Below, one piece after another: positions 9,748 through 31,381 of a stretch of 32,000 nt of DNA. The position numbers and the translations under genes are program-made. Origin of the DNA: an uncultured Actinomycetes bacterium. GTDB taxonomy: Bacteria > Actinomycetota > Actinomycetes > S36-B12 > CAIYMF01. The notes under the pieces were generated by a model that worked only from the letters and a program-made list of their open reading frames with translations, was not told where the DNA came from and did not search any database. Position 1 is the first letter of the stretch. Every line of letters starts with the position of its first letter. Where the stretch lies: contig CAWJMG010000001.1 of NCBI GenBank assembly GCA_963843975.1, positions 600,001 to 632,000 of the forward strand, read 5' to 3'.

Positions 9748-9840
9748 GCCTCGACGCTAGGTCTGCGCCTGCGCCGGCGTCGTCGGGGACGCTCCCCCAC
9801 CCCACCCTGATCCGACCCCCACCTGGGGCCGGCAGCTGGA

Positions 9841-10077
9841 TCAGCCAACGACGACGAGGCGCTGCTGGCGCAGCGACATCACGAGCGCGACGATCCAGCC
9901 GATGATGGTCCAGCCGAGCAGCAGGTTGACCCAGAAGACGCCCCAGTGCTTGACGTCGCGGACTGCGGCGACGGCCCACGGGGCCATGTAGCCGCCGGTG
10001 AGGACGGCGACGACGATGGCGACGACCTTGGTGGCGGTCCACGACCTGTCGCGGGGCTCTACCCGCACGGCGCTCAT
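9841..10077 (-). CDS. Superinfection-immunity-like small membrane protein (Imm_superinfect family)
   Basis: 78 aa with two TM helices. The motif YMAPWAVAAVRDVKHWGVFWVNLLLGWTIIGWIVALV matches the LLGWT..GW signature I associate with this family. Confidence 0.6.
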   Translation of the reverse strand: MSAVRVEPRDRSWTATKVVAIVVAVLTGGYMAPWAVAAVRDVKHWGVFWVNLLLGWTIIGWIVALVMSLRQQRLVVVG

Positions 10078-10149
10078 GGCACCGATGCTAACGACGGACG
10101 CCGGACCCGCCTCCTGGCAGGCCCGGCGTCACGTCCGGTGGTCCGCGTC

Positions 10150-12108
10150 CTAGACGCTCGCGGCCACCACGTCACCCTGGAGCCGGCGTGCAGCCTCCTC
10201 GTCGCCGAAGCGGGCTGCGCGGCGGAGCCACTCGGCGGCACGCTCGGTCTGGCCGCGACCCTCGAGCAGCGTGGCGATGCGGTTCATCGACGGGGTGTCG
10301 TTGAGCATCGCCGCGCGGCCGTACCACTCCTCGGCCGTCTTCAGGTCCTCGCGGTCGGCCGAGAGATCGCCGAGGGCGCGCATCGAGAGCGCGTGGTTGT
10401 GCTCCTCCGCCGCCTCGGACCATGCCTGCTGGGCGGCCCGGCGGTCGCCCGCCGACGCGAAGGCCGTCCCGCGTGCGAACAGTGCCTCGCCGCTGATGCC
10501 GGTCTCGACCGGGGCCGGTGCGTCGCCGTCCGCCGCAGCCGGGCTGATCGGCGCCGAGACGACGTGCTGCTGGAAGTAGAGCTCGTCGGGGTAGGCGACG
10601 GCGCGGCCGTCGGCGACGGTGAGCTCGTGGGTCACGCGGCCGTGCTCGACGACCGCCGCGACCTCCCACTCGGGGTTCGTGACCGAGATCGACCACAGCA
10701 GCACGGCGCCGCGGAGGTCGTCGGGCAGCGAGGCGAGCATCTCGTCGAGGCGGTCGAGCGCGACGAGCGCGCGGGCCACCGGCGAGCCGTGGCCGCGGGC
10801 GGCGTCGGCGAAGAGGTCGGCGGCCTGACGGGCGAGGTCGACCGAGTCGCCGTCGCGCCAGGTGGCCCAGGACGCGGCGTCCGCACCGCGCACGGCGCCG
10901 ACCTCCGCACCGGGATAGCCGGCCATCGCGCTCGGCCAGTGCCAGGCGCAGGCCCACGCGGCCCCGGCCTGGGTCTGCCAGACGACGTCGCTCGACGCGC
11001 TGCACGGGCCGTCGCGGTCGACGGCGGCGCAGGTGGGGTGACCGGCGTCGAGCACGGCCGCCACGGCGGCGAAGTGCAGGTCGCGCGGGTCGGGCTCGGG
11101 CTCGGGCTCGGGGACGACCTCGGCGACGGGCTCCTCGGCGACCTCCTCGACAGCCTCGGGGAGCTCGGCCACGGGCTCGGCGACCTCCGCGTACGGCGCC
11201 TCGGCCTCGACCGCCTCGACCGCCTCGACCGCCTCGACCGCAGGCTCCTCGACGACCTCGGCCAGCTCGGCCACGGGCTCCTCGACGACAGGCTCCTCGA
11301 CGAGCGGGGCGGCGTTCACGTCGGCGACGAGGTCCTCGACCACGGGGGCCACGGGCTCCTCGACGGCCTCGGCCGGGAACACCGTCTCGGCGGGCATCGC
11401 GAACGGGTCGTCGTGGTGCTCGGCGACGGCGACGGCGGCGGCCGCCGCGGCCGCGAGGGCCAGACCGCCGATCTCGGCGGGCTCGGGCTCGGGCGCCGTC
11501 TCGGCCTCGACGAGGTCGGCCACCGCGACGTCGGCTGCCACCTCGGGAAGGACCGGACCGTCCGGAAGGACGACGGGCGGCAGGTCCTCGAGCGCGACGT
11601 GCTCGACGACCGGCTCGGCCTCGACCGCCGGCTCCAGCGCCGGGAGCTCGTCCTCGACCAGGGGCTCGAGGGCCGGGATGTCGGACGCAGCAATGGCCTC
11701 GAGCACCGGCTCGGCCTCGGGCACCGGCTTCGCCTCGAGGTCGGGCTCGGTCTCGAGCTCGGCCACGGCCTCCTCGACGGAGGCAGCGGGTGCCTCGCCG
11801 GCGAGGCGCAGGATCATGCCCGGCAGCGGGTCGTGGGCCGGGTCGTCGACCAGGGGCAGCGTGAGGCGCCACTCGGGCAGGCCCTCCACCACCTCGGCGC
11901 CGCTGTCGACCAGCCGGTAGACGCGGACGTCGCGCACGGCTTCGCCGTACACCTCGCGCAGCGCGGCGGACACGTCCTCGCCCTCGGCGAGGACGAGGCG
12001 TACGCGCGCCGAGTCGATGCAGATGCGCTCGTGCACGGCGTAGGTGTCGCCGCCCGCCACGACCGTGGAGAAGCTCGCGCTCGGGTGTGTCGGTCCAGTG
12101 CTCAGCAC
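10150..12108 (-). CDS. Hypothetical protein with a small N-terminal domain, a long acidic E/A/V/P low-complexity repeat region, a central Cys/Trp-containing domain and C-terminal TPR/Sel1-like repeats
   Basis: 652 aa. The C-terminus (AEEWYGRAAMLNDTPSMNRIATLLEGRGQTERAAEWLRRAARFGDEEAARRL) is Sel1/TPR-like. The start is uncertain: GTG at 12108 lacks an SD, whereas an out-of-frame ATG at 12148 has one (see findings). Confidence 0.6.
   Translation of the reverse strand: MLSTGPTHPSASFSTVVAGGDTYAVHERICIDSARVRLVLAEGEDVSAALREVYGEAVRDVRVYRLVDSGAEVVEGLPEWRLTLPLVDDPAHDPLPGMILRLAGEAPAASVEEAVAELETEPDLEAKPVPEAEPVLEAIAASDIPALEPLVEDELPALEPAVEAEPVVEHVALEDLPPVVLPDGPVLPEVAADVAVADLVEAETAPEPEPAEIGGLALAAAAAAAVAVAEHHDDPFAMPAETVFPAEAVEEPVAPVVEDLVADVNAAPLVEEPVVEEPVAELAEVVEEPAVEAVEAVEAVEAEAPYAEVAEPVAELPEAVEEVAEEPVAEVVPEPEPEPDPRDLHFAAVAAVLDAGHPTCAAVDRDGPCSASSDVVWQTQAGAAWACAWHWPSAMAGYPGAEVGAVRGADAASWATWRDGDSVDLARQAADLFADAARGHGSPVARALVALDRLDEMLASLPDDLRGAVLLWSISVTNPEWEVAAVVEHGRVTHELTVADGRAVAYPDELYFQQHVVSAPISPAAADGDAPAPVETGISGEALFARGTAFASAGDRRAAQQAWSEAAEEHNHALSMRALGDLSADREDLKTAEEWYGRAAMLNDTPSMNRIATLLEGRGQTERAAEWLRRAARFGDEEAARRLQGDVVAASV
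11205..11240. repeat. Four perfect tandem copies of the 9-bp unit cctcgaccg, in frame within the acidic-repeat gene
   Basis: Read directly. It encodes AVEAVEAVEAVE on the minus strand. Confidence 0.9.
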
Positions 12109-14470: not shown

Positions 14471-15844
14471 TCAGCGGGCGAGGTAGCCGAGCAGGTCCTG
14501 ACGGGTGACGACGCCGGCCGGCAGGCCGTCCTCCACGACGATGGCGGCGTCCGCGGTCTCGAGCGCCGCGACGGCCGCGGCGACGGGCTCGCCGGCGCCG
14601 ATCATCGGCAGGGCCGCGCTCATGTGCTTCTCGACCGGGTCGGCGAGCTCGGCCCGACCTGCGAAGAGGGCGTCCAGCAGGTCTCGCTCGACGACCGAGC
14701 CGACCACCTCGGCCGTCTTCACCGGCGGCTCGGCGCGCACGACGGGCATCTGCGACACGGCGAACGTGCGCAGGATGTCGATGGCCTCGCGAACGGTCTC
14801 CTGCGGGTGCGTGTGCACGAGCTGCGGGAGCTCGCCACCCTTGGAGCGCAGGACGTCGCCGACGCTGCGCTCGGCCGAGGTCGACAGGAAGCCGTAGTCG
14901 GCCATCCACTCGTCGCTGAACACCTTCGACAGGTAGCCGCGGCCGCCGTCCGGGAGGAGCACCACGATCACGTCGTCCTTGCTCGCGCGCGCGGCCACCT
15001 CGAGCGCGGCCTGCACCGCCATGCCGCAGGACCCGCCGACGAGCAGGCCCTCCTCGCGCGCGAGCCGGCGGGTGACGAGGAAGGAGTCGCGGTCCGAGAC
15101 CGCCACGATCTCGTCGGTGACGGTCTGGTCGTACGCCGTCGGCCAGAAGTCCTCGCCGACGCCCTCGACGAGGTACGGCCGTCCGGTGCCGCCCGAGTAG
15201 ACCGAGCCGACCGGGTCGGCGCCGATCACCTTCACCGTGCCGCCGCTGACCTCCTTGAGGTAGCGCCCGGTGCCGCTGATCGTGCCGCCGGTGCCGACGC
15301 CTGCCACGAAGTGCGTGATGCGACCCTCGGTCTGCGCCCAGAGCTCGGGGCCCGTCGTCTCGTAGTGCGAGCGCGGGTTGTTCGGGTTGGAGTACTGGTC
15401 GGGCTTCCAGGCACCGGGGATCTCGCGCATGAGCCGGTCGGACACCGAGTAGTACGAGCGCGGGTCCTCGGGGTCGACCGCGGTCGGGCAGACCACGACC
15501 TCGGCGCCGTACGCCTTGAGGACGTTCTGCTTGTCCTGGCTCACCTTGTCGGGGCACACGAACACGCAGCGGTAGCCCTTGGTCTGCGCGACCAGCGCGA
15601 GGCCGACGCCGGTGTTGCCGCTCGTCGGCTCGACGATCGTGCCGCCAGGCCGCAGCGCGCCGCTCTGCTCGGCCGCCTCGATCATGCGCGTGGCGATGCG
15701 GTCCTTCACCGACCCGCCCGGGTTGAGGTACTCGACCTTCGCCAGCACGAGCGGGGCATCCGGGCCCAGGTGGGCCGTCACCGAGCGGAGGCGGACGAGG
15801 GGCGTGTTGCCGATGAGGTCGACGACGTTGTCGTAGTACTGCAT
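14471..15844 (-). CDS. cbs: Cystathionine beta-synthase (PLP-dependent domain plus a C-terminal CBS-domain pair)
   Basis: 457 aa. Contains NTPLVRL, the PLP-lysine block NPGGSVKDR, the GTGGT loop and C-terminal CBS repeats. Confidence 0.85.
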   Translation of the reverse strand: MQYYDNVVDLIGNTPLVRLRSVTAHLGPDAPLVLAKVEYLNPGGSVKDRIATRMIEAAEQSGALRPGGTIVEPTSGNTGVGLALVAQTKGYRCVFVCPDKVSQDKQNVLKAYGAEVVVCPTAVDPEDPRSYYSVSDRLMREIPGAWKPDQYSNPNNPRSHYETTGPELWAQTEGRITHFVAGVGTGGTISGTGRYLKEVSGGTVKVIGADPVGSVYSGGTGRPYLVEGVGEDFWPTAYDQTVTDEIVAVSDRDSFLVTRRLAREEGLLVGGSCGMAVQAALEVAARASKDDVIVVLLPDGGRGYLSKVFSDEWMADYGFLSTSAERSVGDVLRSKGGELPQLVHTHPQETVREAIDILRTFAVSQMPVVRAEPPVKTAEVVGSVVERDLLDALFAGRAELADPVEKHMSAALPMIGAGEPVAAAVAALETADAAIVVEDGLPAGVVTRQDLLGYLAR

Positions 15845-20643: not shown

Positions 20644-21139
20644 GCGGCGATCGTCGGCCTCGGACGCGAGATCCGGCAACGGCTCGGTCTCTCCTGGCGC
20701 TCGACCTCTAGCCCCAGGCTGCTGCGAGGCACACGGTCGAACGCATCTGCGGCGGACGCCAGCGGCCGCGCGCGCCCGGCAGGCCCGTCTCGACGTCGTA
20801 TGCACGGGCGCCGGCGGGCAGCCTACGGCCGAGGGCGGCGGGATGCGCCCGGCAGGGGCCGTCTCGGCTGGCCAGATCGGCGCCCGAAGGCGAGTGGGCG
20901 GGAGCGGCCTTCGGCCGCGGGCGGCCGGGTGCGCTGGCGGGGCGCGGTGCGCGGTGGTTCCTCCCGAGCCCTGCCGTGTAGCGGGCAGTGGGTGCGGCGC
21001 TACGCGCCGAGCAGAACCGCGTGTGCACCTGAGTGGTCTGCTTTCACACCCACCCAAAGCGGTCAATAGCCTCACGAAGGCGCTCGAGCGTGTTGCTCAC
21101 GTCGACCGACCCGTCAGGGTGCCGCTCCACTCGTTGGAG

Positions 21140-21476
21140 ATTCAGCAGCCCAACACCAAGCTTCCAACCGAGCCGGGTTGATGCCCTCGTCGATGCCTAT
21201 GCGGCCGGTGCGAGCCTGAGTCAGTTGGGTCAGCAGTTCGGAATCCATCGGCAGACCGCCCAGGCTCACTTGCAGCGTCGCGGGGTCGCGATCCGCAAGG
21301 AGCTGGCGGCGCTGACCGGCGAGCAGATCGACGTGGCAGCGGAGCTCTACCGTCACGGCATGTCCACCAGCAGTATCGGCGCCAGCCTTCAAGTCGATGC
21401 CAGCACTGTCGCGAGGGCCTTGCGACGTCGAGGAGTTGCCATACGACCGCGGGGTCGCCCAGCAGCTGGTTCGTGA
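21140..21476 (+). pseudogene. Tandem HTH-domain fragment, probably the remnant C-terminus of a recombinase/resolvase-type protein with no catalytic domain upstream
   Basis: Two repeats fit the pattern Y..G.S...L....G....T....L.RRGVAIR ([40 protein letters not shown] and IDVAAELYRHGMSTSSIGASLQVDASTVARALRRRGVAIRPRG). The expected preceding KLPTEP is in the neighbouring frame; removing one G from the GGG run at 21174-21176 (within ccggg, 21172-21176) joins them. The ORF's own N-terminus (from 21033) looks non-coding. Confidence 0.35.
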
Positions 21477-21591
21477 ACTGAACCCGCGGGCTACCCGGAC
21501 GTCGACACGCCGGACGACCGAGTGGACGGTTGGGGGTGTGTCTGGTTTCATTACCTCAATCGAGGAAGTAAAACCTGACACAGGAGGCGTC

Positions 21592-22278
21592 GTGGCGATC
21601 CAACAGCCCCAGCCGTGGGGCCGGGGCGCAGATCAGCGTCTTCGTGCCGAGTTCGACCTTACCGTTGCGGACGTCCACGATCGGATCTTGAGGCGCTCCC
21701 AGGCCAGCGCCCGCGAGTATGCGAACAACCTTTACCCGCCCGGCTCCCCGGGGCAGGTTCGGTATCTCCACCACGTGCGGAGTCTGTCGGAGGTGTTGCT
21801 CCCGAAGCCCGGTTGGGTCCGCGACGACACGAACAACATCCCGAAGCTTGTGCACGCGGGCCGCGGCCGGCTCCTCGTCGTTACGAGCGGGGACTCCCTC
21901 ACCGGTGTGCCCTGGAGCGTCCAGCGCAAGCACCCGTGTTCCAAGTACCCCAAGGGCAGCGCTACGCACTCTGCCGTTCTCCGCAATGGACAGCTGGCCC
22001 TCGACCTTGGGCCGGAGGTCGCCGACACCGCACCGTCTTCATCGCTCGATCTATCAGCCGTCGAGACGTGGTTCCTGATGGTCTATGTCGATCAGCACCA
22101 GATTCGGTGCGAGGTCTCGTGCCCGTCGGGAATCGACACCCGTGGTCGCGTCGCCGACTGGTCCGACCGCATCCTTCTCCCCTCGCTCCCGAACGACGGA
22201 ACCGCGATCGACATCGAGATTGACGACAACCCGGACGAGCCTGAATCCGCCATCGACATCGAGATTGATCCTCTGTGA
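21592..22278 (+). CDS. Hypothetical protein, a candidate toxin/effector partner of the downstream HTH-ImmA gene
   Basis: GTG at 21592 has GGAGG 4 nt upstream. The stop overlaps the next start in GTGA. I recognise no family. The C-terminus carries a direct repeat AIDIEID(x8)AIDIEID. Confidence 0.55.
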   Translation: MAIQQPQPWGRGADQRLRAEFDLTVADVHDRILRRSQASAREYANNLYPPGSPGQVRYLHHVRSLSEVLLPKPGWVRDDTNNIPKLVHAGRGRLLVVTSGDSLTGVPWSVQRKHPCSKYPKGSATHSAVLRNGQLALDLGPEVADTAPSSSLDLSAVETWFLMVYVDQHQIRCEVSCPSGIDTRGRVADWSDRILLPSLPNDGTAIDIEIDDNPDEPESAIDIEIDPL

Positions 22279-23399
22279 CTCAGGAGGCCTTCTCCCTCAC
22301 TCCGCGGCGACTCACCTTGGCCCGCCAACGCCGTCGCATGACCCTGACAGGGCTCGCGAACGCCATGGGTGTGTCAGCGAGGACTGTGACCCGTTGGGAG
22401 TCCGATCCCGTCTCTCCCGAACCGGAGACGATCGAGCGGCTCGCCGCCGTTCTCGACTTCCCAGTCGCGTTCCTGACGGCCGATGACCTCGAGGAGTTGC
22501 CTCTCGAGGCCGTGAGCTTCCGAGCGTTGACGAAGACCGGAGCCGGCCTACGTCACTCGGCCCTGGCCGCCGGCTGCATCGCTGCCGATCTGTCCCGCTG
22601 GGTAGGCGAACGCTTCCGCCTGCCGGCGCCAGACGTGCCCACGCTTCCCGGCTATGAGCCGGAGACGGCGGCTCAAGCGGTGCGAGAGAGATGGGGGTTG
22701 GGCACGGCCCCTATCCCTCACCTATTGGACCTGCTGGAGTCTCGGGGGATTCGAGTCTTCAGTCTCGCGACGGATGTGAGCGAGATCGATGCCTTCAGCT
22801 TCTTCCGCCGCGGAACACCGTTCGTTTTGGTCAACACCGGGAAGACAGGAGAACGCCAGCGTTTTGACGCCGCGCACGAGCTGGGTCACCTCGTGATGCA
22901 TTGCGAGGACGAGGCGCCCAGCGGCCGTGAAGCCGAACTGCAAGCGCAGAGGTTCGCAGCCGCCTTTCTGATGCCTCGCGAGGACGTCATGGGGAGGCCG
23001 CTCTGGAATGTTGACGCGAGAACGATCATTCGCGCTAAAGCCCGGTGGAGAGTCGCGGCGATGGCGCTCACGCATCGACTGCGCGAGCTCGAAATGCTCA
23101 CGGAGTGGGGCTACCGCGACGCTTGCGTGCAGCTGTCTCAGGCCGGCTACCGGCGGGGGGAGCCTTTCGCTCCGATTGTTCCCGAGACGTCGCAGATCCT
23201 GAGAAAGGTCTTCAGTTCACTGCGTGATCAGGGTGTGACAGCGCACCAAGTGGCAAAGGACCTTCACCTGACTGAGGCTGAGTTGAACAGACACATCTTC
23301 GGACTCGTACCCGTGGCTCTTGACGGCGATGGACAGGGGGGAGGCTCGAAGTCCAACCTGAGGCTGGTTCCCACTCCCCAGGACGTCCCCAACTACTAG
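22275..23399 (+). CDS. XRE-family HTH fused to an ImmA/IrrE (COG2856, M78-like) zinc metallopeptidase domain
   Basis: 374 aa. The N-terminal LTLARQRRRMTLTGLANAMGVSARTVTRWESD is an HTH_3-type motif. The central FDAAHELGHLVMH supplies HEXXH, followed by AAAFLMPRE. Confidence 0.85.
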   Translation: MTQEAFSLTPRRLTLARQRRRMTLTGLANAMGVSARTVTRWESDPVSPEPETIERLAAVLDFPVAFLTADDLEELPLEAVSFRALTKTGAGLRHSALAAGCIAADLSRWVGERFRLPAPDVPTLPGYEPETAAQAVRERWGLGTAPIPHLLDLLESRGIRVFSLATDVSEIDAFSFFRRGTPFVLVNTGKTGERQRFDAAHELGHLVMHCEDEAPSGREAELQAQRFAAAFLMPREDVMGRPLWNVDARTIIRAKARWRVAAMALTHRLRELEMLTEWGYRDACVQLSQAGYRRGEPFAPIVPETSQILRKVFSSLRDQGVTAHQVAKDLHLTEAELNRHIFGLVPVALDGDGQGGGSKSNLRLVPTPQDVPNY

Positions 23400-24124
23400 C
23401 GACCGCTGTTAGGCACCAAGTAGTGCGGACCGATGAAGCCCACGTGCACCTTGCCCGTGGCACCGCCAGTGTCGTCGTGAAAGTAGATCCGCGGCGCGAG
23501 GTCGCCCCCGCCCTCTGAGATCTTGAGGTGCGCCTCCATGTAGACCTCGCCATCAGGGCGGACGGCAGGGTCAACCGGGAGCAATCTGGCTGCCCACAGC
23601 TTCTTGTTGTTGCGGAGAGTTTCAGATTCGACCATCGAGAGCTTCTTTGGCGTCGCCGGCCACGACAGCGCGTCTCCCCGCTGGCACCACTCCCAAAACC
23701 CACCAGCGAACCCGGCCCGCCTGGCCCTCGCGTAGGCGGCCAACGCTCGTAGTCCGCGCCACGCTGTCTGCCCCCATACCCGTGATTCGGCCGCAGTGTC
23801 CAAGCGGATCACGTCACGGATCGCCGCGTCCGGCAGTCCCAAGTCATCGGCGAGGTACTCCTGCGCGAGTAGGGCTGCGTGGCTGACATCCTCCGCCTCA
23901 TCGGGTTGCGAATCCGTGGGCGATTGATTGAACCAGACGACTTCCTCAAGCCCACGAACCTGCAAGTCCGTCTGGATGCGGTCAAGCACTCCTCGAAGCT
24001 GGGAAAGCTCGGCCGACAGTTCTTCCTGATCCGCCGCAGCTGCGAGATACAGATCCTCGAAGCTTCTCCTCAAGGGCGATCGGAGAAGCCGCCGGCTCCG
24101 CCTCAAGCGAAGTTGCGGCGCCAT
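23396..24124 (-). CDS. Hypothetical protein, either the C-terminal part of a split ~529-codon gene or an independent gene starting at GTG 23989
   Basis: A coiled-coil-like segment (FEDLYLAAAADQEELSAELSQLRGVLDRIQTDLQ) precedes a C-terminal domain ending YMEAHLKISEGGGDLAPRIYFHDDTGGATGKVHVGFIGPHYLVPNS. It overlaps the upstream ORF by 143 nt in another frame. Confidence 0.5.
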   Translation of the reverse strand: MAPQLRLRRSRRLLRSPLRRSFEDLYLAAAADQEELSAELSQLRGVLDRIQTDLQVRGLEEVVWFNQSPTDSQPDEAEDVSHAALLAQEYLADDLGLPDAAIRDVIRLDTAAESRVWGQTAWRGLRALAAYARARRAGFAGGFWEWCQRGDALSWPATPKKLSMVESETLRNNKKLWAARLLPVDPAVRPDGEVYMEAHLKISEGGGDLAPRIYFHDDTGGATGKVHVGFIGPHYLVPNSGR

Positions 24125-24983
24125 CAGCGTGTGAAGCCGCTAGCCGAGATGCTGCTGCTTCCCATGACTCGGGAGGCCGACGCCGGGCCATTCGCGGGGC
24201 GATCTGGTTGATCAGCAGGCTGGCAATCTTCGTGCTGTCGGAGCCAAGCCGGTAGTGCGGAACGTAACGATGACGCCAACCGTCCGTTGAGCGATCCAGG
24301 GGTGCGGGCACATAGGTTCGCACTGCTCCGCCCCAGACCGACAGGTCCGACAGCTCACTCGAGAGGGCTTGCACGGCCTCGAGGTCGAGGGTCCGCACTT
24401 CCGCCAGCCCCGAGAGCCGCATAGCTACGGCGTCGGCCCGCTTCAACCAGAAGTCGTTGCGTGTCCCGGGTGCTTCCGTGAAGACCACCACCGGTAGTAC
24501 TCGCTGGCCGTCCCGAAGATGCTCGACGAAATGTTGGACGCCGCCCGCTCTCACAGGTCGCGCGTGGTTGTAGAGGCGGGACGAACCCAACCGAGGACGA
24601 CCGACATCCATGAGAAGCCGACTCACAAGTCTCGGCGCGCCCAGATCGACTCGCGCGAAGGCATCATCGGCAGCGAGAGCAACGTCGACCCAAACCCAAT
24701 GACTCTCCTGATCAGACCAGGATCTCAGTGTCGTCGTCCACGTAGACGGGTCACCCGACGAACCGGCCTGTTCCTCGATCAGCCCAGCGACGAGCACAGC
24801 GTCGTTGCCGTCACCAGCCCGGAGGACTGCGCCTTGGGTCGAGTCAACCTTGAACGACGCGATCTCACCCGAATCCCACGCCGCTCCCAGCTTGGTCTGG
24901 ACCCAGTCCCGAAAGGCTGCAAGGGCGCTGTCAGCGATGCCGGGGTCGCCGCTGTCCCAGATGGCTCTGTAGACGATCGCCAC
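23982..24983 (-). CDS. Hypothetical protein, the N-terminal part of the same split gene or an independent 333-aa protein
   Basis: GTG start with GGGGGA upstream. The sequence is non-repetitive and globular-looking up to about IALEEK, after which the tail (GSVSRSCGGSGRTVGRAFPASRSA) looks out of frame. I recognise no family. Confidence 0.5.
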   Translation of the reverse strand: MAIVYRAIWDSGDPGIADSALAAFRDWVQTKLGAAWDSGEIASFKVDSTQGAVLRAGDGNDAVLVAGLIEEQAGSSGDPSTWTTTLRSWSDQESHWVWVDVALAADDAFARVDLGAPRLVSRLLMDVGRPRLGSSRLYNHARPVRAGGVQHFVEHLRDGQRVLPVVVFTEAPGTRNDFWLKRADAVAMRLSGLAEVRTLDLEAVQALSSELSDLSVWGGAVRTYVPAPLDRSTDGWRHRYVPHYRLGSDSTKIASLLINQIAPRMARRRPPESWEAAASRLAASHADGAATSLEAEPAASPIALEEKLRGSVSRSCGGSGRTVGRAFPASRSA

Positions 24984-25223
24984 AAGTCCCCCAAGTCGGA
25001 TCTCAGTGACGCAAGGGTAGCGTCGACATGCGACGGGCCGCCGTCACCGAAGCGCTCGCGTCGATGCATCGGCGGGCCGTCCTGCCGGCTCGAACGCAGG
25101 GTCCGCGGCCACTGGTCACGTCGTCCAATAGCGGAGATGGCGAGACGCTACTCGAACCCGACAGAACACCTCGCCACCCTGCTTCAAGAGCTGCAAGAAG
25201 GGGCACTGATCGTTGCCGAACAC

Positions 25224-25721
25224 CTACTGACTGTTGCGAATGTCGATTGCCTCATCGACCCAGGTCCCCAAGTTGGCCTTGATGTGGTCGTAAACGTAGG
25301 TGCTTGTGGTGAACGGTGGGTCGTAGGTCTTCACGATCGATGACAGCTGCACCGATCCGTTCTTGAGCGTAAACGAGCTGAATGGGTTACTGCCCTTGGA
25401 CGACTGCTTCTGGTGCGAATCCAACAAGTTGTGAATGTAGATCCCAACGAGACCCTTCTTGGAGTTCCAAGCCTTCTCAATCTCGTAGTCGATCCACTTC
25501 CTGCCGGCCGTGCTGGAGCCGATGAGAACGACCGCGCAAGAGCGACCAGACATCTGGGAATCGATCCATGCCTTGATGGCGTCGTCTCCCCCACTAGTCA
25601 CCTCTTCCCAGTCGTTGTCGCTCACCGGCGCGTTGCCCTCAAGCACGCCACTGTTGCGAACCTGCGATGCACGCCACGCGTCGGCCGCGTAGTGGAAGCT
25701 GTAGAACGCCTTCCTCGCCAT
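25224..25721 (-). CDS. ThsB-like TIR domain protein (TIR-like/DUF1863 type), copy 1
   Basis: 165 aa. MARKAFYSFHY...VRNSGV...AIKAWIDSQMSGRSCAVVLIGSSTAGRKWIDYEIEKAW...GLVGIYIHNL...SKGSNPF matches my memory of Bacillus ThsB (FFSFHY, VRN, VLIG, W..YEI, GI.I, KG.NPF). The YEI glutamate is retained. GGAGGA lies upstream of the ATG. Confidence 0.8.
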   Translation of the reverse strand: MARKAFYSFHYAADAWRASQVRNSGVLEGNAPVSDNDWEEVTSGGDDAIKAWIDSQMSGRSCAVVLIGSSTAGRKWIDYEIEKAWNSKKGLVGIYIHNLLDSHQKQSSKGSNPFSSFTLKNGSVQLSSIVKTYDPPFTTSTYVYDHIKANLGTWVDEAIDIRNSQ

Positions 25722-25740
25722 GGGGTCTTCCTCCGGTTAG

Positions 25741-26235
25741 TCACTCATGTGTGTTGTCAGCTGTCGAACCGCGATCGTCGGACCCTGACTCGTCTTGAGA
25801 GCAGGCAAGTCGAATCCTTGCGGCGACGTCCCCCAGGTCTGCGTCTTCATAGATGCTGCCGGTCGGCCAAATGTGGCCGAAGCCATCCCGCTCCCAGCGG
25901 GGAACCACGTGGAAATGCAGGTGGAAGACGGTCTGTTCGGCCGTTTTGCCGGCCGAAGTGATCAGATTCATTCCCTCTGGTCGTAACGCGACGTCTATCG
26001 CCCGACCAACGTGGATTGCGGCCTGGATGAGATCGTCCGCTATCGGTGGTGCCACGGCCCAGAGGTCAGCAACATGTGTCCGTGGGATGATCAAGGTGTG
26101 CCCGGGGGTGGCAGGACGGAGCGGAAAGAAGGCAACCCACGTCTCGCCTTCGCAGACCATCTCGACGGACGTGTCTCGGCCACGAGCAATGTCGCAGAAG
26201 TCGCAACCCTCCTCGTACTGCGTAGAGTCCATCAT
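25741..26235 (-). CDS. HIT (histidine triad) family nucleotide hydrolase/transferase
   Basis: 164 aa. Contains CDFCDI near the N-terminus, PGHTLIIPRTHV and an intact triad, VFHLHFHVVPR. The start ATG overlaps the stop of the upstream TIR gene (ATGATG/TGA). Confidence 0.85.
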   Translation of the reverse strand: MMDSTQYEEGCDFCDIARGRDTSVEMVCEGETWVAFFPLRPATPGHTLIIPRTHVADLWAVAPPIADDLIQAAIHVGRAIDVALRPEGMNLITSAGKTAEQTVFHLHFHVVPRWERDGFGHIWPTGSIYEDADLGDVAARIRLACSQDESGSDDRGSTADNTHE

Positions 26236-26672
26236 CGACCTGCGGCCTTCGCCGCAGCCTCGATCCAGGCGCCCATGTTGTTGTACCCGTCATCCTTGTT
26301 CCACAGATAGAACGGGTAGCCGTCTGGCAACTTGCCGCACCTGTCGCTCGTCCTGTGCCTGAAGTCTTCGATCTTGCTGATGTCTATGCCGAGCAAGCCG
26401 TGGCCCAGAGCCTTGCTCTTGTCGATCTCGTACTTGACCCAACGGCTCGAGCAAGTGGCGGCACCCACCAGGACGACGGTCACCGAGGTCCCCACTAACT
26501 GGCCATCAATCCACGCCTTGATCGCAGTGTCACCGCGCTGTTTGAGCTTCTCGAAGTCCGCAGCGTCAACGAACCCAGCCGCTTGCCGACCCTGCGTTAC
26601 CCAGCTATTTCGCACGACCATCGCGCGAGAGACGTCGCTGTATTCGAAGCTGAAGAAGACGTTGCGAGCCAC
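26232..26672 (-). CDS. ThsB-like TIR domain protein, copy 2
   Basis: 146 aa from GTG at 26672: (M)ARNVFFSFEY...VVRNSWV...AIKAWIDGQLVGTSVTVVLVGAATCSSRWVKYEIDKS...GLLGIDI. The motif set matches copy 1. The GTG overlaps the TAG of the upstream membrane-protein frame. Confidence 0.75.
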   Translation of the reverse strand: MARNVFFSFEYSDVSRAMVVRNSWVTQGRQAAGFVDAADFEKLKQRGDTAIKAWIDGQLVGTSVTVVLVGAATCSSRWVKYEIDKSKALGHGLLGIDISKIEDFRHRTSDRCGKLPDGYPFYLWNKDDGYNNMGAWIEAAAKAAGR

Positions 26673-27077
26673 TACTTGCCCCCCTTGATTGCAATGATTG
26701 CGATGACATCCACAACGATGATCGAACCGTAGAAGGCCCAGAGATGGGGTCGCAGGCACGTCGCAAGCCAGCGACGTATGGCGTGCTCCTTGTCGATCTT
26801 CATCGAGAAGTTGATCTCGGCCTCTGGCGTCATCGCGACCTCGTTGTGGAAGCTTTACAAAGCCCCGCTCGAGCCACAGGTAGTAGCCATCGAGGGCCCA
26901 AAACAAGGCAGTCGTCACCAAGGCGATCAGGAGCAGCGCGCGCCGGGTTTCAATCGCCGCAAATCCGGCTAGCGCAGCAGCAATCGTGATGGACCAGCCC
27001 TTGAACAGGAAGGAGTTGTTCGCCATGCGAGCGATGGCCGCCTGTATGAAGTCGAGATGCTTGAGCTTGGCTTCCAT
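26672..27077 (-). pseudogene. Small (~134 aa) three-helix membrane protein, frame-disrupted near 26850-26859; candidate effector of the TIR cassette
   Basis: Frame 1 reads MEAKLKHLDFIQAAIARMANNSFLFKGWSITIAAALAGFAAIETRRALLLIALVTTALFWALDGYYLWLERGFVK. The +1 frame continues with a credible sequence, SFHNEVAMTPEAEINFSMKIDKEHAIRRWLATCLRPHLWAFYGSIIVVDVIAIIAIKGGK*. Frame 1 itself runs on as an implausible linker (PQRGRDDARGRDQ...CGCHRNHCNQ). The span is 406 nt, which is 1 mod 3. Confidence 0.6.
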
Positions 27078-27080
27078 CTC

Positions 27081-30000
27081 CTATTCGCCCCCTTCAGCGC
27101 TCAAGCCGAAGAAGCGTTCGAAGTACTCACTGAGCTTGGCGAGTACACGTTGCTTCTTCTCGCTATGCCCTCCTTCACTCGAGAACCGTGACGCTGGCGG
27201 AAGCACGCGGGTGATGGAGGTTCCTGTTGTCTGGATTGCGCCATCGCGGAACGCACGAGTGACGAACTCGTGAGTCTCTTTGGCGCGCAGGCCCTCATCC
27301 TCGATGAGCTGGCTCAGTTCCGCTGTCCGACGCTCGGCTACATATTCATTCCACTGCTGATCCACGGCGCCAGCTGCCGATACACGGTCGACGAAGGCCT
27401 CGATCAGGTCGCTCTTGTTTCGCAGCGTCGGGCTGGCGTCGACCGCGCGTGAGATCGTCGCGCGCAACTCCATGTCGTCACCGTTACCGTGCTCATCGCG
27501 GTACTTGGTCACGAGCATGAGTATGTAGTCGACGTTGATCTCGACCTGTCTTATGAGCTCAATCTCGAAGACTAGGTCGTCGTTGATCGACTCCTTCTCG
27601 GCCTCGTCGCCCTTGCGGAACTCGGCGTATAGGTCAAGGTAGATGCTGCGGTAGTCCTGCGCCTGGCGTTCGGTCAGGATCTCGTTGCCGGCAAAGTCAT
27701 CGAACGATGTCAGGATGTTCTGCAATCGCAGGATGGCACCGAAGAGCGCGATGAAGTCCTTCTGGGCGCTCTCGCCGACGATAAGTTGTCCCAGCGGAAA
27801 GCGCTCGAGAAGCTCCTGAACCTTTGCGGTGTAGTCACCGTAGTAGTCGGCGTAGGGCTTGAGCAGAACGACGCCACCCGCCTCCTTGTTGCCGAACAGC
27901 GCGATCGCGTCGTTCGTCTCCTGCTCGAGGTTCCGGAAGCTGACGATGTTCCCATATGTCTTCACGGAGTTGAGGATTCGGTTGGTTCGCGAGTAGGCCT
28001 GCACCAACCCATGGGATCGCAGGTTCTTGTCGACCCAGAGCGTGTTGAGCGTCGTGGCGTCGAAACCCGTCAGGAACATGTTGACGACGATCACGAGGTC
28101 GATCTCACGGTTCTTTAACCGAAGCGAGAGGTCCTTGTAGTAGTTCTGGAACTTGTCCGAGGTTGTATCGAACGAGGTTCCGAACATGTCGTTGTAGTCC
28201 TGGATCGCGTCGTCCAAGAACGACCGAGCATCAGTTGAGAGCGCGTCTGTCTCGAAGCCCTCCTCGTCGAGGTAGTCGTCATCCACCGCGGCGTTCGGCG
28301 CGTACGAATAGATGAGCCCGATCTTCAGCTTTTGATCAGGAGTGAGGTCACGCTGCTGCAACTCGAAATGGTTGTAGTACATGCGGGCGGCCTCAATAGA
28401 GGCGGTCGCGAAGATGGCGTTGAATCCGTTCACGCGGCGGTCCTTGAGCGTGTAGTGCTCGCTGCGCCGGGTCTTCTGGTCGAAGTGCTCCAAGGTGTAG
28501 GCGACAACCTGACTTACGCGCTCTGGTGCAAGCAGGGCTCGCTCGGTGTCGATGGCCGACACCTTCTTGTCCGAGATGCCTTCAGGCAGTTTGATCGTGT
28601 TGACGTAGTCGATACGAAACGGCAGGACGTTCTTGTCACTGATGGCGTCCACGATCGTGTACGTATGCAACTTCTCGCCGAACGCCTGTTCCGTGGTCTT
28701 GAGCTGGGGGTTACCACCGGTGCCGGCGTTCGCAGCAAAGATGGGTGTGCCAGTGAAGCCGAACAGGTTGTATCGCTTGAACGCCCTGGTGATGGCCGTG
28801 TGCATGTCGCCAAACTGCGAGCGATGACACTCATCGAAGATGATCACAACGTGGCCGTCGAAGATCGCATGACCCTTGTTCGCCGGTGAGCCGATGAACG
28901 TCGAGAGCTTCTGGATCGTCGTGATGATGATCCGAGACTGCGAGTTCCCTAGCTGCTTCTTCAGTACTGCCGTCGAGGTGTTTGAGTTGGCCGCACCCTT
29001 TTCGAATCGGTCATACTCACGCATCGTTTGGTAGTCGAGGTCCTTACGGTCCACAACGAACAGGACCTTGTCGACATCCGGCAACCGGCTGACGAGCTGC
29101 GCCGCCTTGAAGCTCGTAAGGGTTTTGCCAGATCCTGTGGTGTGCCAGACGTACCCACCCGCTGCGACGGTGCCAAGTTGCTTGTAGTTCGTTGAGATCT
29201 CGACCTTCTGCAAGATCTTCTCGGTCGCGACAATCTGATATGGCCGCATGACGAGGAGCATCCGGTCGGCCGTGAGAACGCAATAGCGCGTCAGGACCGC
29301 GAGCAACGAGTGCTTAGCGAAGAAGGTCCTCGCAAAACCAGTGAGGTCCTGGATGGGCTTGTTCGTCGAATCGGCCCACCACGACGTGAACTCGAACGAA
29401 TTCGACGTCTTCCGGAAACGCTTCTTACCCCGAGCGTCCTCGATGTGCTGGCGACGCGTCGTATTGCTGTAGTACTTCGTCAGTGTGCCGTTGCTAATGA
29501 CGAACAACTGCACGTAGTCGAACAGACCGGAGCCAGCCCAAAAGCTGTCGCGTTGATAGCGGTCGATCTGGTTGAACGCTTCACGAATATCGACGCCGCG
29601 TCGCTTCAGCTCCACATGGACAAGCGGAAGGCCGTTCACGAGCACGGTGACGTCGTAGCGATTCGACCGCGCTGCACCTCCTTCACCCTGGCCGACCTCG
29701 TACTGATTGATGACCTGCAAGCGGTTGTTGTGGATGTTCTTCTTGTCGATCAAAGACACGTTCTTCGTTGAGCCATCGTCCCGAGCCAGGAGCTGGACGT
29801 GATCCTCCTGAATTCGAACGGTCTTCTCCGACGCGCCCTCGTTCACACCGGCCACAGATGTGGTGAAGAACCGAGCCCACTCTGCATCCGAGAACGTGAA
29901 GCCGTTCAGAAGCTCGAGTTGTGTCCGAAGGTTCGCCACCAAGTCCGCTTCGTTCCTTAGCGGCAAGTACTCATATGCCTGCGAGCGGAGTAGACGGATG

Positions 30001-30131
30001 AACTCCGCTTCCAGCGCTGCCTCCGACTGATAGGCGGAGGCCCCAGCGTCATCCGACTTGAACTCGGCAACAACAGTGCTCTCCGAGCTCAAGGCAATGG
30101 GCTCGTAACGGCGAGGAGTCGAGTCGCTCAT
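27081..30131 (-). CDS. hsdR: Type I restriction enzyme, R subunit (HsdR)
   Basis: 1016 aa. Contains an N-terminal nuclease region, helicase motifs (TGSGKT, IIFDECHRSQ, FTGTP), QAYSRTNR and a C-terminal helical domain. It overlaps hsdS in ATGA. Confidence 0.92.
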   Translation of the reverse strand: MSDSTPRRYEPIALSSESTVVAEFKSDDAGASAYQSEAALEAEFIRLLRSQAYEYLPLRNEADLVANLRTQLELLNGFTFSDAEWARFFTTSVAGVNEGASEKTVRIQEDHVQLLARDDGSTKNVSLIDKKNIHNNRLQVINQYEVGQGEGGAARSNRYDVTVLVNGLPLVHVELKRRGVDIREAFNQIDRYQRDSFWAGSGLFDYVQLFVISNGTLTKYYSNTTRRQHIEDARGKKRFRKTSNSFEFTSWWADSTNKPIQDLTGFARTFFAKHSLLAVLTRYCVLTADRMLLVMRPYQIVATEKILQKVEISTNYKQLGTVAAGGYVWHTTGSGKTLTSFKAAQLVSRLPDVDKVLFVVDRKDLDYQTMREYDRFEKGAANSNTSTAVLKKQLGNSQSRIIITTIQKLSTFIGSPANKGHAIFDGHVVIIFDECHRSQFGDMHTAITRAFKRYNLFGFTGTPIFAANAGTGGNPQLKTTEQAFGEKLHTYTIVDAISDKNVLPFRIDYVNTIKLPEGISDKKVSAIDTERALLAPERVSQVVAYTLEHFDQKTRRSEHYTLKDRRVNGFNAIFATASIEAARMYYNHFELQQRDLTPDQKLKIGLIYSYAPNAAVDDDYLDEEGFETDALSTDARSFLDDAIQDYNDMFGTSFDTTSDKFQNYYKDLSLRLKNREIDLVIVVNMFLTGFDATTLNTLWVDKNLRSHGLVQAYSRTNRILNSVKTYGNIVSFRNLEQETNDAIALFGNKEAGGVVLLKPYADYYGDYTAKVQELLERFPLGQLIVGESAQKDFIALFGAILRLQNILTSFDDFAGNEILTERQAQDYRSIYLDLYAEFRKGDEAEKESINDDLVFEIELIRQVEINVDYILMLVTKYRDEHGNGDDMELRATISRAVDASPTLRNKSDLIEAFVDRVSAAGAVDQQWNEYVAERRTAELSQLIEDEGLRAKETHEFVTRAFRDGAIQTTGTSITRVLPPASRFSSEGGHSEKKQRVLAKLSEYFERFFGLSAEGGE

Positions 30132-31381
30132 ACGGCCAGATCCTCGAACTTGAGCAGGCGATCTCGATAGAACTCATACTGACGACTGCGCGCGTTCATC
30201 TCTGCGGAGATGTCGCTGCTGAGGCCGTTCGTTAGCGATTCGAAGCGGTCGAGTACGGATGCGATTCGCCGCTGCTCGGCAAGCTCTGGGATGGGAACCT
30301 GCACCTTGGCCAGCCGAGCCTTGGAAACGTTGAAGCGCGTTACACCGCTGGCCGTTCGGACGATTTGCGATCGCAGCTCTGCCGAGCGGAACAGGTGCTT
30401 CGCAAACTCTGGCTCGAGAATGTGTGGATCGTCCAGGCGCAATCCAAAGCAGAAGCTGTTCAGATACAGCGGCTCGTCGACGTCTGAGGTCACCACCGAA
30501 GACATGCCTACCTCGTCTGCCGTCTCGGACGAACCGGTAAAGAGGATGTCGCCTTTCCGTAGGGATCGCTGCTTCTCACCTGGCTCAACGTGAACCAGGT
30601 CTTCGATGTCACGATCGACGGCCAGGTTGTTGAAGACGTTGACATAGGAGACGTACCGCGCGTTGCCGCCGGTGAAGTCCGCCTTGGACTTTCCCGAGAG
30701 TCCGCCGAAGAACTTCCCAAGGTCGGACATAGACATCCGGCGGACACTTTCATCCGGGAACGCCATGAGCGAATCCCGATAGAACTCGTACTGACGGCGC
30801 CTTGCGGCCAACTCCGCTTCGAGCTCCTCACGTAGCCCGGCGTGTAGCTCCGTGAAGTGATCCAAGACGTCGACGATCTCCCTCTGCGCTTCCAACGGCG
30901 GAAGCGGGATCTTGAACTCCTTGACGGCCCGGTCCGTGATCGCCGGATAGCTAGCGCCTCGCTCGTTTGCTTCGACGTAGGCGTAGAAGTCCGCGGTTCC
31001 GAGCAAGTGAAAGAGGAACCCAGGGACGATCTCTCGCTGCTTTGGTCGAAGTACGCAGTAGCCCGTACTCGCTACCTGCCCGTCGTACTCCGCTTCGACG
31101 AGAACGTAGCGCTTGAGCATCGGCCGCGTCGTGGCGAAGAGGACGTCACCTTCGCGCACCAGTTGTTGGGCCCTACTCGGAGCATCATCGCTCGTGATAC
31201 TCGTCGCGGTACGGATCCGGTGAGTCAGGCGATCGACCGACGTCAAGTCGATGTAGAGGAACTCCCGCCCGGGAACCTCAGCCCATCGGACGGTTGAGCC
31301 ACGCTCCACGACAGAGCCCATGGACACGGATTTGACGCCTTGTGGGCACAGCTCTCTGATCAGCTCATGGATACGACTCAT
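30128..31381 (-). CDS. hsdS: Type I restriction-modification specificity subunit (HsdS) with two target recognition domains
   Basis: 417 aa. Two variable halves are each followed by the conserved coiled-coil repeat (ARRRQYEFYRDSLMAF and ARSRQYEFYRDRLLKF). It sits between hsdM and hsdR with overlapping stop/start codons. Confidence 0.9.
   Translation of the reverse strand: MSRIHELIRELCPQGVKSVSMGSVVERGSTVRWAEVPGREFLYIDLTSVDRLTHRIRTATSITSDDAPSRAQQLVREGDVLFATTRPMLKRYVLVEAEYDGQVASTGYCVLRPKQREIVPGFLFHLLGTADFYAYVEANERGASYPAITDRAVKEFKIPLPPLEAQREIVDVLDHFTELHAGLREELEAELAARRRQYEFYRDSLMAFPDESVRRMSMSDLGKFFGGLSGKSKADFTGGNARYVSYVNVFNNLAVDRDIEDLVHVEPGEKQRSLRKGDILFTGSSETADEVGMSSVVTSDVDEPLYLNSFCFGLRLDDPHILEPEFAKHLFRSAELRSQIVRTASGVTRFNVSKARLAKVQVPIPELAEQRRIASVLDRFESLTNGLSSDISAEMNARSRQYEFYRDRLLKFEDLAV

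Follow-up and report, generated by a model that had tools for sequence, protein, structure and literature searches.

A 32,000-nucleotide stretch from an uncultured Actinomycetes bacterium (GenBank assembly GCA_963843975.1, contig CAWJMG010000001.1, positions 600,001 to 632,000; hereafter the window) carries a compact four-gene cassette on its minus strand, directly 3' of the hsdR gene of a type I restriction-modification (R-M) operon. By the list of open reading frames (ORFs) and the sequence itself, the order is a small membrane protein, a TIR protein (TIR2), a histidine triad (HIT) protein and another TIR protein (TIR1), and by homology the cassette appears to be type XI Thoeris in a variant form, with another gene order and a split effector, that overlaps PDC-M50, a system modelled in PADLOC. 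The membrane gene occupies 26672..27077, with its ATG at 27077 and its TAG at 26674-26672, and codes for 134 amino acids once an extra T at 26850 is removed. TIR2 (26232..26672) starts with a GTG at 26672 and has 146 amino acids, the HIT gene (25741..26235) starts with an ATG at 26235 and has 164, and TIR1 (25224..25721) has 165. The junctions are tight throughout: the hsdR stop codon (TAG, 27083-27081) is followed by GAG and then by the ATG of the membrane gene, a gap of 3 nucleotides; TAGTG holds a 1-nucleotide overlap of the membrane-gene stop with the TIR2 start; in ATGATGA the TIR2 stop (TGA) overlaps the HIT start (ATG); and HIT and TIR1 are separated by a 19-nucleotide spacer, ctaaccggaggaagacccc, with GGAGGA within it. 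Judged from this layout, the cassette genes are translationally coupled. No promoter-like or terminator-like site was found from hsdR to TIR1 in a sigma-70 consensus scan, which makes this weak evidence. It is probable that the hsdR operon is the transcriptional context of the cassette and that hsdR is no functional component of the Thoeris module. A first-pass annotation of the window, made from the letters alone, had described this four-gene cassette abutting the end of a type I R-M operon; its coordinates, its strand and every one of its junctions proved correct, and hsdR (27081..30131, minus strand) matches NCBIfam TIGR00348 with E = 5e-163.

Is the membrane gene intact? As written in the window it is frameshifted by the extra T at 26850, and the mechanical ORF (26232-27077, 281 amino acids) continues into TIR2. 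The 1.4-Mb source contig at NCBI/ENA carries the same extra base, and its gene calls are fragments of 53, 333 and 197 amino acids, the first of which is all that they give for the membrane gene. An exact-protein look-up of TIR1 retrieved an independent assembly, an 8,388-bp Logan contig from run ERR12037365 (L167). Compared with window positions 29733-21343, this contig shows 0 substitutions and exactly three differences, all of them 1-nucleotide insertions in the window: T 26850 in the membrane gene, C 25193 in an intergenic region and A 24064 in the gene downstream of the cassette. In L167 the membrane gene is an intact ORF of 134 amino acids, and the downstream gene, split in the window, is one ORF of 528. 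The repaired membrane sequence matches 593 standalone proteins of ~133-134 amino acids, at full coverage and ~70% identity. Given single-base insertions that break ORFs and not one substitution, the insertions at 26850 and 24064 are probably consensus indel errors of the assembly and not decay, and the one at 25193 looks like another such error. The ~134-residue, three-helix membrane gene proposed in the first-pass annotation is therefore intact in L167 and frameshifted as written in the window, and the reported split of the downstream gene comes down to a single inserted base absent from L167. The 281-residue ORF was also considered as a genuine membrane::TIR fusion and rejected, as its homologues are separate proteins (133-134 and 146 amino acids) and L167 lacks the extra base. 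The lesson for annotation is that single-base indels in a long-contig assembly can disguise an intact defence system as a pseudogene or a fusion protein.

The TIR pair, the HIT enzyme and the membrane protein

The domain assignments of the cassette proteins lie well outside what chance would give. Both TIR proteins are of the ThsB type. Pfam PF08937 (ThsB_TIR) matches TIR2 with E = 2e-20 and TIR1 with E = 2e-25; among the PADLOC models (PADLOC-DB v2 throughout), ThsB1 matches TIR2 with E = 4e-54 (PDLC00431) and TIR1 with E = 3e-73 (PDLC00433), and PDC-M50B matches TIR1 with E = 6e-65 and TIR2 with E = 5e-43. TIR1 also aligns to the Bacillus cereus ThsB structures 6LHY and 9B7D with E = 1e-15. 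The catalytic glutamate, said in the first-pass annotation to be kept in the YEI motif of both proteins, is indeed there: E80 of TIR1 and E83 of TIR2 align with E85 in the 'RRWVRYEI' of B. cereus ThsB (PDB 6LHY), a residue whose role in that protein Ofir and colleagues reportedly addressed in 2021, and the glutamate at this position is invariant in an eight-sequence alignment. A separate full-length match of TIR1 is PDB 8WCF (E = 3e-44), a 160-residue protein deposited as 'Molecular chaperone Tir'; a literature search on this entry turned up no relevant paper.

The HIT protein matches Pfam PF01230 (E = 6e-20) and the PADLOC model ThsC2 of the HIT family (E = 2.6e-12). Its histidine triad, HLHFHVV, is intact (H105-x-H107-x-H109), as had been read from the letters, and the HxHxH triad is invariant across 36 sequences of ThsL, the type XI effector discussed below. 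The closest solved structures are of the Hint branch, 3IMI (E = 3e-25) and 1Y23 (E = 2e-24). With these residues in place, HIT catalysis is probably retained.

The membrane protein is matched over its full length by PADLOC PDC-M50A (E = 1e-39), and with it every component of the cassette is matched by a Thoeris or PDC-M50 model. The protein has an N-terminal amphipathic helix with the motif KLKHLxFIQxxIxRM, plus three hydrophobic helices; hydrophobic segments lie at residues 45-65 and 111-134. An AlphaFold2 model from a 56-sequence alignment is all-helical (helices 2-42, 46-82, 99-107 and 110-133), with a mean predicted local distance difference test score (pLDDT) of 80.6. Across 40 sequences from many phyla, 11 columns are invariant (K4, H7, F10, I11, Q12, R17, G27, W28, W60, D63 and E70), and K26 is nearly so. 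These invariant columns are mostly polar or aromatic and lie in the N-terminal amphipathic helix or just past the second hydrophobic helix. Since HIT is fused to the N-terminus of this domain in ThsL, the invariant positions would face the cytoplasm. Which family does the protein belong to? The first-pass annotation had proposed an effector that might be SLATT-like; the effector role agrees with the comparative genomics below, and SLATT identity is rejected at the level of sequence profiles, as no Pfam SLATT model reaches E ≤ 1 with any of the diverse members compared (0 of 40). DUF2270 (PF10028) gives collinear matches in 10 of these 40 members, all sub-threshold (the best reaches 17.7 bits against a cut-off of 25; the best E is 2.8e-3, residues 27-103 against profile positions 23-98), and DUF3278 gives sub-threshold matches in 24. 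Both ties, to DUF2270/ThsF and to DUF3278, are leads at this level of similarity. A 286-position profile that included HIT columns collected 25,173 matches, was swamped by generic HIT proteins and is uninformative on relatives of the membrane module.

Kinship with type XI Thoeris and PDC-M50

Which described system comes nearest? The catalogue of Yirmiya et al. 2025 (bioRxiv 10.64898/2025.12.03.692087) comprises 29 putative types of Thoeris, and seven new types are validated there. Their type XI consists of a ThsB TIR and a "HIT hydrolase" effector, ThsL; a type XI system found on a metagenome scaffold of Actinobacteria gave E. coli protection, and the product of the type XI TIR is none of the known signals, neither the isomers of cyclic ADP-ribose (cADPR) nor histidine-ADP-ribose (His-ADPR). 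We scanned metagenome contigs with the published TIR-domain sequence of the validated system. On three contigs (L087-L089) the TIR is 100% identical to that of the published system, which is experimentally defensive. In L087 and L088 a HIT-membrane ORF of 287 amino acids lies directly 3' of the TIR; L089, a contig of 1,356 bp, ends past the HIT part. The N-terminal half of this 287-residue ThsL is a HIT domain, and its C-terminal half matches our own hidden Markov model of the membrane protein with E = 5e-16. On the ThsL sequence P0121, PADLOC places ThsC2 at residues 3-107 (E = 2e-21) and PDC-M50A at residues 152-275 (E = 1.3e-20), the latter spanning 4-123 of the 134 model positions. The window HIT protein aligns with residues 5-153 of the same sequence (44% identity, E = 1e-35), and the membrane protein with residues 151-275 (33% identity, E = 4e-15). 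By these alignments, HIT is homologous to the first half of ThsL and the 134-residue membrane protein to the second, so that the window encodes the type XI effector as two polypeptides.

Three points go beyond the published description: ThsL contains the PDC-M50A membrane domain, a natural split version of ThsL exists, and the membrane domain, not HIT, is the constant partner of the TIRs in the loci surveyed below. Fused HIT-membrane proteins are frequent in Streptomyces, Nocardioides and their relatives, with "HIT family protein" as their sole annotation. What of ThsA? The first-pass annotation had seen none, and no ThsA of type I (SIR2/SLOG), nor a Macro ThsA, was matched by PADLOC among the ORFs of 21033-27077 and the ten longest ORFs elsewhere in the window, with hsdR scanned against NCBIfam only and hsdS and hsdM lying outside the scan. 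Because the HIT and membrane pair is homologous to the two halves of ThsL, no ThsA would be needed. The features by which Thoeris is generally recognised are a ThsB-type TIR with its catalytic glutamate, which is present, and an adjacent effector, which the homology to ThsL would supply. The placement of the cassette in the Thoeris family, already suggested from the letters, is borne out by the Pfam and PADLOC assignments and by homology to the validated type XI locus.

The likeness to type XI extends to the TIR subfamily (TIR1 shows 42-44% identity with both TIR domains published for type XI), a HIT domain with an intact triad, the same membrane-domain family, the actinobacterial range and type I R-M genes nearby. 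The differences lie in architecture. The validated order is TIR and then HIT::membrane in one 287-residue protein, whereas the window has the effector in two polypeptides, the order membrane-TIR-HIT-TIR and two TIR paralogues; its membrane protein also falls in a separate, more conserved clade, with ~70% identity among members. The single-polypeptide organisation of ThsL is thus not what the window has, and 25 of 51 type-XI-like contigs likewise keep HIT and the membrane module on separate genes; a HIT-membrane fusion may not be required as a strict mark of type XI. PDC-M50, with its membrane component PDC-M50A and its TIR component PDC-M50B, is also close: both components are present at full length, adjacent and overlapping, in the membrane-then-TIR order and with the tight coupling seen in 39 of 61 distant genomes. 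The PADLOC model has no HIT, whereas the lineage of the window has gained a HIT gene 3' of the TIR.

Other Thoeris types share single traits with the cassette. The first-pass annotation knew of no TIR system with a HIT partner, a claim that earlier work overturns: ThsC of PADLOC (2021) and ThsL of type XI (2025) both precede it. Payne et al. 2021 (PMC8565338) reported the HIT protein ThsC in 167 Thoeris systems (2.4%) and suggested that it produces or breaks down the signal, in the manner of an off-switch; in the 2025 nomenclature 'ThsC' is another protein, the Macro effector of type II (Yirmiya et al. 2025). PADLOC's 'Thoeris type II' (ThsA, ThsB, ThsC) resembles the cassette in linking a HIT-family gene to ThsB-type TIRs and differs from it in that ThsC is there an extra to ThsA, whereas the window is without ThsA and has its HIT in the company of the membrane module. 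ThsF, the effector of type V, has DUF2270, three transmembrane helices and a predicted heptameric channel gated by 3'cADPR (Yirmiya et al. 2025). Here too a small three-helix membrane protein stands beside a ThsB-type TIR, and the PF10028 matches described above are collinear; no member reaches the Pfam cut-off, so that homology is unproven, and the type XI TIR does not make 3'cADPR. The membrane family was also compared with the "3TM" putative effector class (Table S1 of Yirmiya et al. 2025) by way of two TIRs of that class, which resemble TIRs in our related loci weakly, with 25-40% identity and E of 1e-7 or weaker. The type II effector joins a Macro domain to transmembrane helices and is gated by His-ADPR (Yirmiya et al. 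2025); the cassette is like it in having a nucleotide-handling enzyme fold, fused or coupled to a membrane-disrupting module, downstream of a TIR, and unlike it in having HIT rather than Macro as the soluble domain and an unrelated membrane domain.

Which part of the cassette is the core? Homologues of the membrane protein were confirmed in 210 genomes of the GTDB species set, and 80 species genomes with such a homologue were surveyed, in a close clade (at least 54% identity, n=19) and a distant clade spread over many phyla (38-48%, n=61). The close clade, mostly Solirubrobacterales, Acidimicrobiia and Kribbella, carries membrane-TIR-HIT or membrane-HIT-TIR-TIR in 17 of 19 genomes, which bears out the expectation that the membrane family co-occurs with ThsB-like TIR and HIT genes; 12 of the 19 have at least two TIRs, and five loci (L009, L012, L015, L016 and L018) have membrane-TIR-HIT without a second TIR. 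Start/stop overlaps at both junctions recur in many close-clade loci, and the 1-nucleotide overlap of membrane gene and TIR recurs in homologues. In the distant clade the membrane gene is paired with a ThsB-type TIR in 39 of 61 genomes, and HIT is found in 0 of 61. Ten distant loci without a ThsB-model TIR were inspected, and eight have a TIR of another family beside the membrane gene (TIR_2, SEFIR, CAP12-PCTIR and a 1012-residue WD40-Roc-TIR_2 protein being the families met); one of the ten has a SLOG domain, and one further locus has TIR_2. A complementary set comprised 61 contigs with at least 1 kb of sequence 3' of a type-XI-like TIR. HIT is present in 51 of them, every one of which (51/51) also has the membrane module, in 26 cases as one ORF; the membrane module occurs without HIT in 5 contigs and HIT without the membrane module in none. 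HIT is thus never met in these contigs without the membrane module, which for its part often pairs with TIRs of several families where HIT is absent. Probably, therefore, the core of the system and its signal-gated effector is the membrane module, and HIT was added later.

The two TIRs also differ in their company. TIR2 is 61-79% identical to the TIR 3' of the membrane gene in close-clade genomes, and is the conserved core TIR of the membrane-TIR-HIT trio, co-varying with the membrane gene. The nearest relatives of TIR1 are scattered, at 53-61% identity, as expected of an accessory sensor paralogue, and this is the status that we assign to it on present comparisons; it shares its best PADLOC model, PDLC00433, with the validated type XI TIR and belongs to the same subfamily, whereas TIR2 matches another model.

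The membrane module also travels on plasmids. Its homologues occur on 76 E. coli and Klebsiella plasmid records, and no phage record carries the gene. A pairing with TIR was seen on a conjugative plasmid of the IncI group from E. coli, NZ_CP083514.1 (L168, 16506-17812), where a 141-residue membrane homologue is followed by a TIR-domain gene, annotated as 110 residues plus a 179-residue hypothetical protein, which may be split. Another HIT-membrane arrangement is found on plasmid p1 of Streptomyces angustmyceticus (L169, 133233-135852), where a 140-residue membrane homologue overlaps the end of a 581-residue hypothetical protein and is faced by a convergent 146-residue HIT gene, with no TIR annotated nearby. 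In a Solirubrobacteraceae metagenome-assembled genome (MAG; L002 / L007:2940-5978) the membrane gene lies directly 3' of the 1012-residue protein with a WD40 beta-propeller, a Roc/Ras GTPase and TIR_2; this locus has no ThsB-type TIR and no HIT, and pairs a large sensor-TIR fusion with a small membrane module. In Chitinophaga dinghuensis (L031:5149-5922) the gene just 5' of the membrane gene codes for a SLOG cluster-3 protein (PF18180, E = 8e-27) and not for a TIR.

Proposed mechanism and competing explanations

Taken together, these comparisons lead us to regard it as reasonably probable that the cassette is an anti-phage system of the Thoeris family that works by TIR signalling, belongs to the type XI / PDC-M50 lineage and has its effector in two pieces. 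How would it work? The following mechanism is an analogy to what Yirmiya et al. 2025 summarise for Thoeris types I, II, V and VII. Infection would trigger one or both TIRs, the two paralogues probably widening the range of phages sensed, and the TIRs would convert nicotinamide adenine dinucleotide (NAD+) to a signal derived from ADP-ribose. This signal would bind the cytoplasmic face of the membrane protein, which is expected to bear K4, H7, Q12, R17, D63, E70 and K26; the membrane protein would then oligomerise or open, the membrane would collapse and the infection would be aborted. HIT would be a catalytically competent accessory docked on, or fused to, the membrane receptor. Related TIRs pair with a membrane module in the absence of HIT, HIT itself never occurs on its own, and its triad is invariant; for these reasons we infer that HIT most likely acts on the nucleotide signal, hydrolysing it at the receptor and so serving as a threshold switch or a self-limiting one. 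A part as a second, enzymatic effector is less likely.

A further generalisation, in which the membrane protein is the killing module of the whole type XI / PDC-M50 lineage and HIT a receptor-tethered hydrolase that destroys the TIR signal, is doubtful on present grounds, and we put it forward tentatively. If true, TIR signalling would have in HIT a built-in threshold or off-switch, much as type III CRISPR has in its ring nucleases, and the split version in the window would make the two activities separable genetically. Independently of this generalisation, the published label "HIT hydrolase" hides a highly conserved membrane domain of the type XI effector, one that is the more widespread partner of TIRs and ranges from Actinomycetota to E. 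coli and Klebsiella, there on conjugative plasmids. A locus with HIT and the membrane module on different genes and with two TIRs would also be a convenient genetic handle for learning what the signal is, which component reads or edits it and which one kills.

Several points weigh against this interpretation. The membrane-first (membrane-TIR-HIT) arrangement, this cassette included, is known from genes alone; PDC-M50 is a computational candidate, on which literature searches turned up no paper; and one of the two published type XI systems defended E. coli, the Sinomonas system having failed to do so (Yirmiya et al. 2025). No solved structure matches the membrane protein significantly, and the step of membrane disruption is taken over from types II, V and VII by analogy. 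Should the additional T at 26850 prove genuine, this strain has a broken membrane gene. Finally, Yirmiya et al. 2025 label HIT as the effector, and the role given to it here is our inference.

That label leads to the principal rival, in which HIT is the killing effector and destroys an essential nucleotide upon the TIR signal, while the membrane protein merely anchors or scaffolds it. The invariant catalytic triad and the fusion of HIT to the membrane domain in many systems agree with such a role, as does the published annotation of the type XI effector as a HIT hydrolase. What would then act in the loci that lack HIT? Of the 61 distant genomes, 39 have membrane protein and TIR without it, as do 5 type-XI-like contigs and at least one conjugative plasmid of enterobacteria among those inspected, while 0 of 51 contigs have HIT without the membrane module. 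The membrane protein, with its 11 invariant and mostly polar or aromatic columns, is moreover conserved to a degree unusual in an anchor, and Hint-branch HIT enzymes are not known to be toxins. We consider this rival unlikely. A much smaller share of belief goes to the idea that two independent systems stand side by side without cross-talk, a PDC-M50 (membrane protein and TIR2) and a minimal type XI (HIT and TIR1). Each effector-like gene does adjoin its own TIR, the two TIRs have different best PADLOC models, of which that of TIR1 is shared with the validated type XI TIR, and two-effector operons are known in Thoeris (Yirmiya et al. 2025); yet the membrane domain is found inside the validated type XI effector itself, the five close-clade loci with a single TIR have a HIT without a TIR of its own, and the TIR2 stop overlaps the HIT start. 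Such a juxtaposition seems to us quite improbable.

Two more rivals deny that there is a working defence system at the locus. The cassette might be a decaying remnant, its membrane gene truly frameshifted and the system inactive in this organism; the extra base is, after all, present in the window and in the NCBI/ENA source contig, where the gene call yields only the 53-residue fragment. L167, however, is identical at every aligned base over 8.4 kb, the window differing by three 1-nucleotide insertions of which two break otherwise intact, conserved ORFs, and the complete lack of substitutions is typical of consensus indel errors, which makes true decay very improbable. Hardly any credence is left for a role outside immunity, in housekeeping or plasmid maintenance. 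The names 'HIT family protein' and 'Molecular chaperone Tir' in NCBI and PDB might suggest one, and so might the occurrence of the membrane gene, beside a TIR gene where inspected, on conjugative plasmids. Against this, a homologous system is experimentally defensive, the cassette lies in a low-GC island between type I R-M and RosmerTA genes and recurs inside R-M loci elsewhere, and the catalytic glutamate of signalling TIRs is kept. The reading preferred here remains that of a Thoeris-family system whose effector is encoded in two pieces.

The island around the cassette

The cassette lies in a horizontally acquired, low-GC defence island, as the drop in GC content from ~0.73 to 0.57-0.65 from ~21000 onward indicates; a thiolase gene ends at 20630. 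Upstream of hsdR on the same strand follow hsdS (30128..31381; PF01420 Methylase_S) and, from 31381 to the window end (32000), the 3' part of hsdM. This gene, of 512 amino acids, lies upstream of hsdS and is called HsdM by position, without a recorded family match. A contig that is 100% identical to the window over 2,293 aligned bp (L001) runs beyond the window end, and the 921 bp recovered past it were assigned to hsdM. Type I R-M genes keep company with the module elsewhere too: they abut it in L054 (membrane gene preceded by HsdR-HsdM/S), in L078 (preceded by HsdS) and in L003-L005 (HsdR upstream), and the validated type XI locus L088 has an HsdR gene 2 kb downstream. The lineages in which the module follows or neighbours type I R-M genes (L054:842-5890, L078:3116-5988, L088:9474-12440) are unrelated and include Roizmanbacteria and Polyangiaceae MAGs.

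Downstream of the cassette, on the same strand, lies the 528-residue gene (23396-24983), intact in L167, which the first-pass annotation had thought might belong to the system. Its protein has no Pfam domain and no homologue in ~160 related loci; PADLOC gives HEC-07 over residues 110-269 (E = 2e-15, weak) and NsnC at the C-terminus (E = 9e-5). On these grounds it appears to be an independent gene of the island, unrelated to the cassette. A 552-residue gene upstream of the L003 cassette was considered together with it as a shared component, and the pair was rejected because the two are mutually unrelated. Convergent with the 528-residue gene is a RosmerTA pair on the plus strand (21397-23399): RmrT (~21397-22278; PADLOC E = 4.5e-42), for which the gene call in L167 suggests a start upstream of 21397, and RmrA (22275-23399), which has a helix-turn-helix (HTH) and a peptidase M78 domain (PADLOC E = 1e-138). 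The sole tRNA gene of the window, a tRNA-Ser (CGA) at 14525-14619 on the plus strand, lies ~6.5 kb from the GC drop and is no marker of the island boundary. At that boundary stands a gene for a small tandem-HTH protein (HTH_38 / HTH_23; 21033-21476, plus strand), which is 36% identical (E = 7e-15) to a 143-residue HTH protein adjoining a membrane-TIR-HIT cassette in another locus (L006:7345-7776, minus strand), where a second such HTH gene lies at 9794-10219. It is possible that the tandem-HTH gene travels with the cassette, either as a regulator or with a function in mobility.

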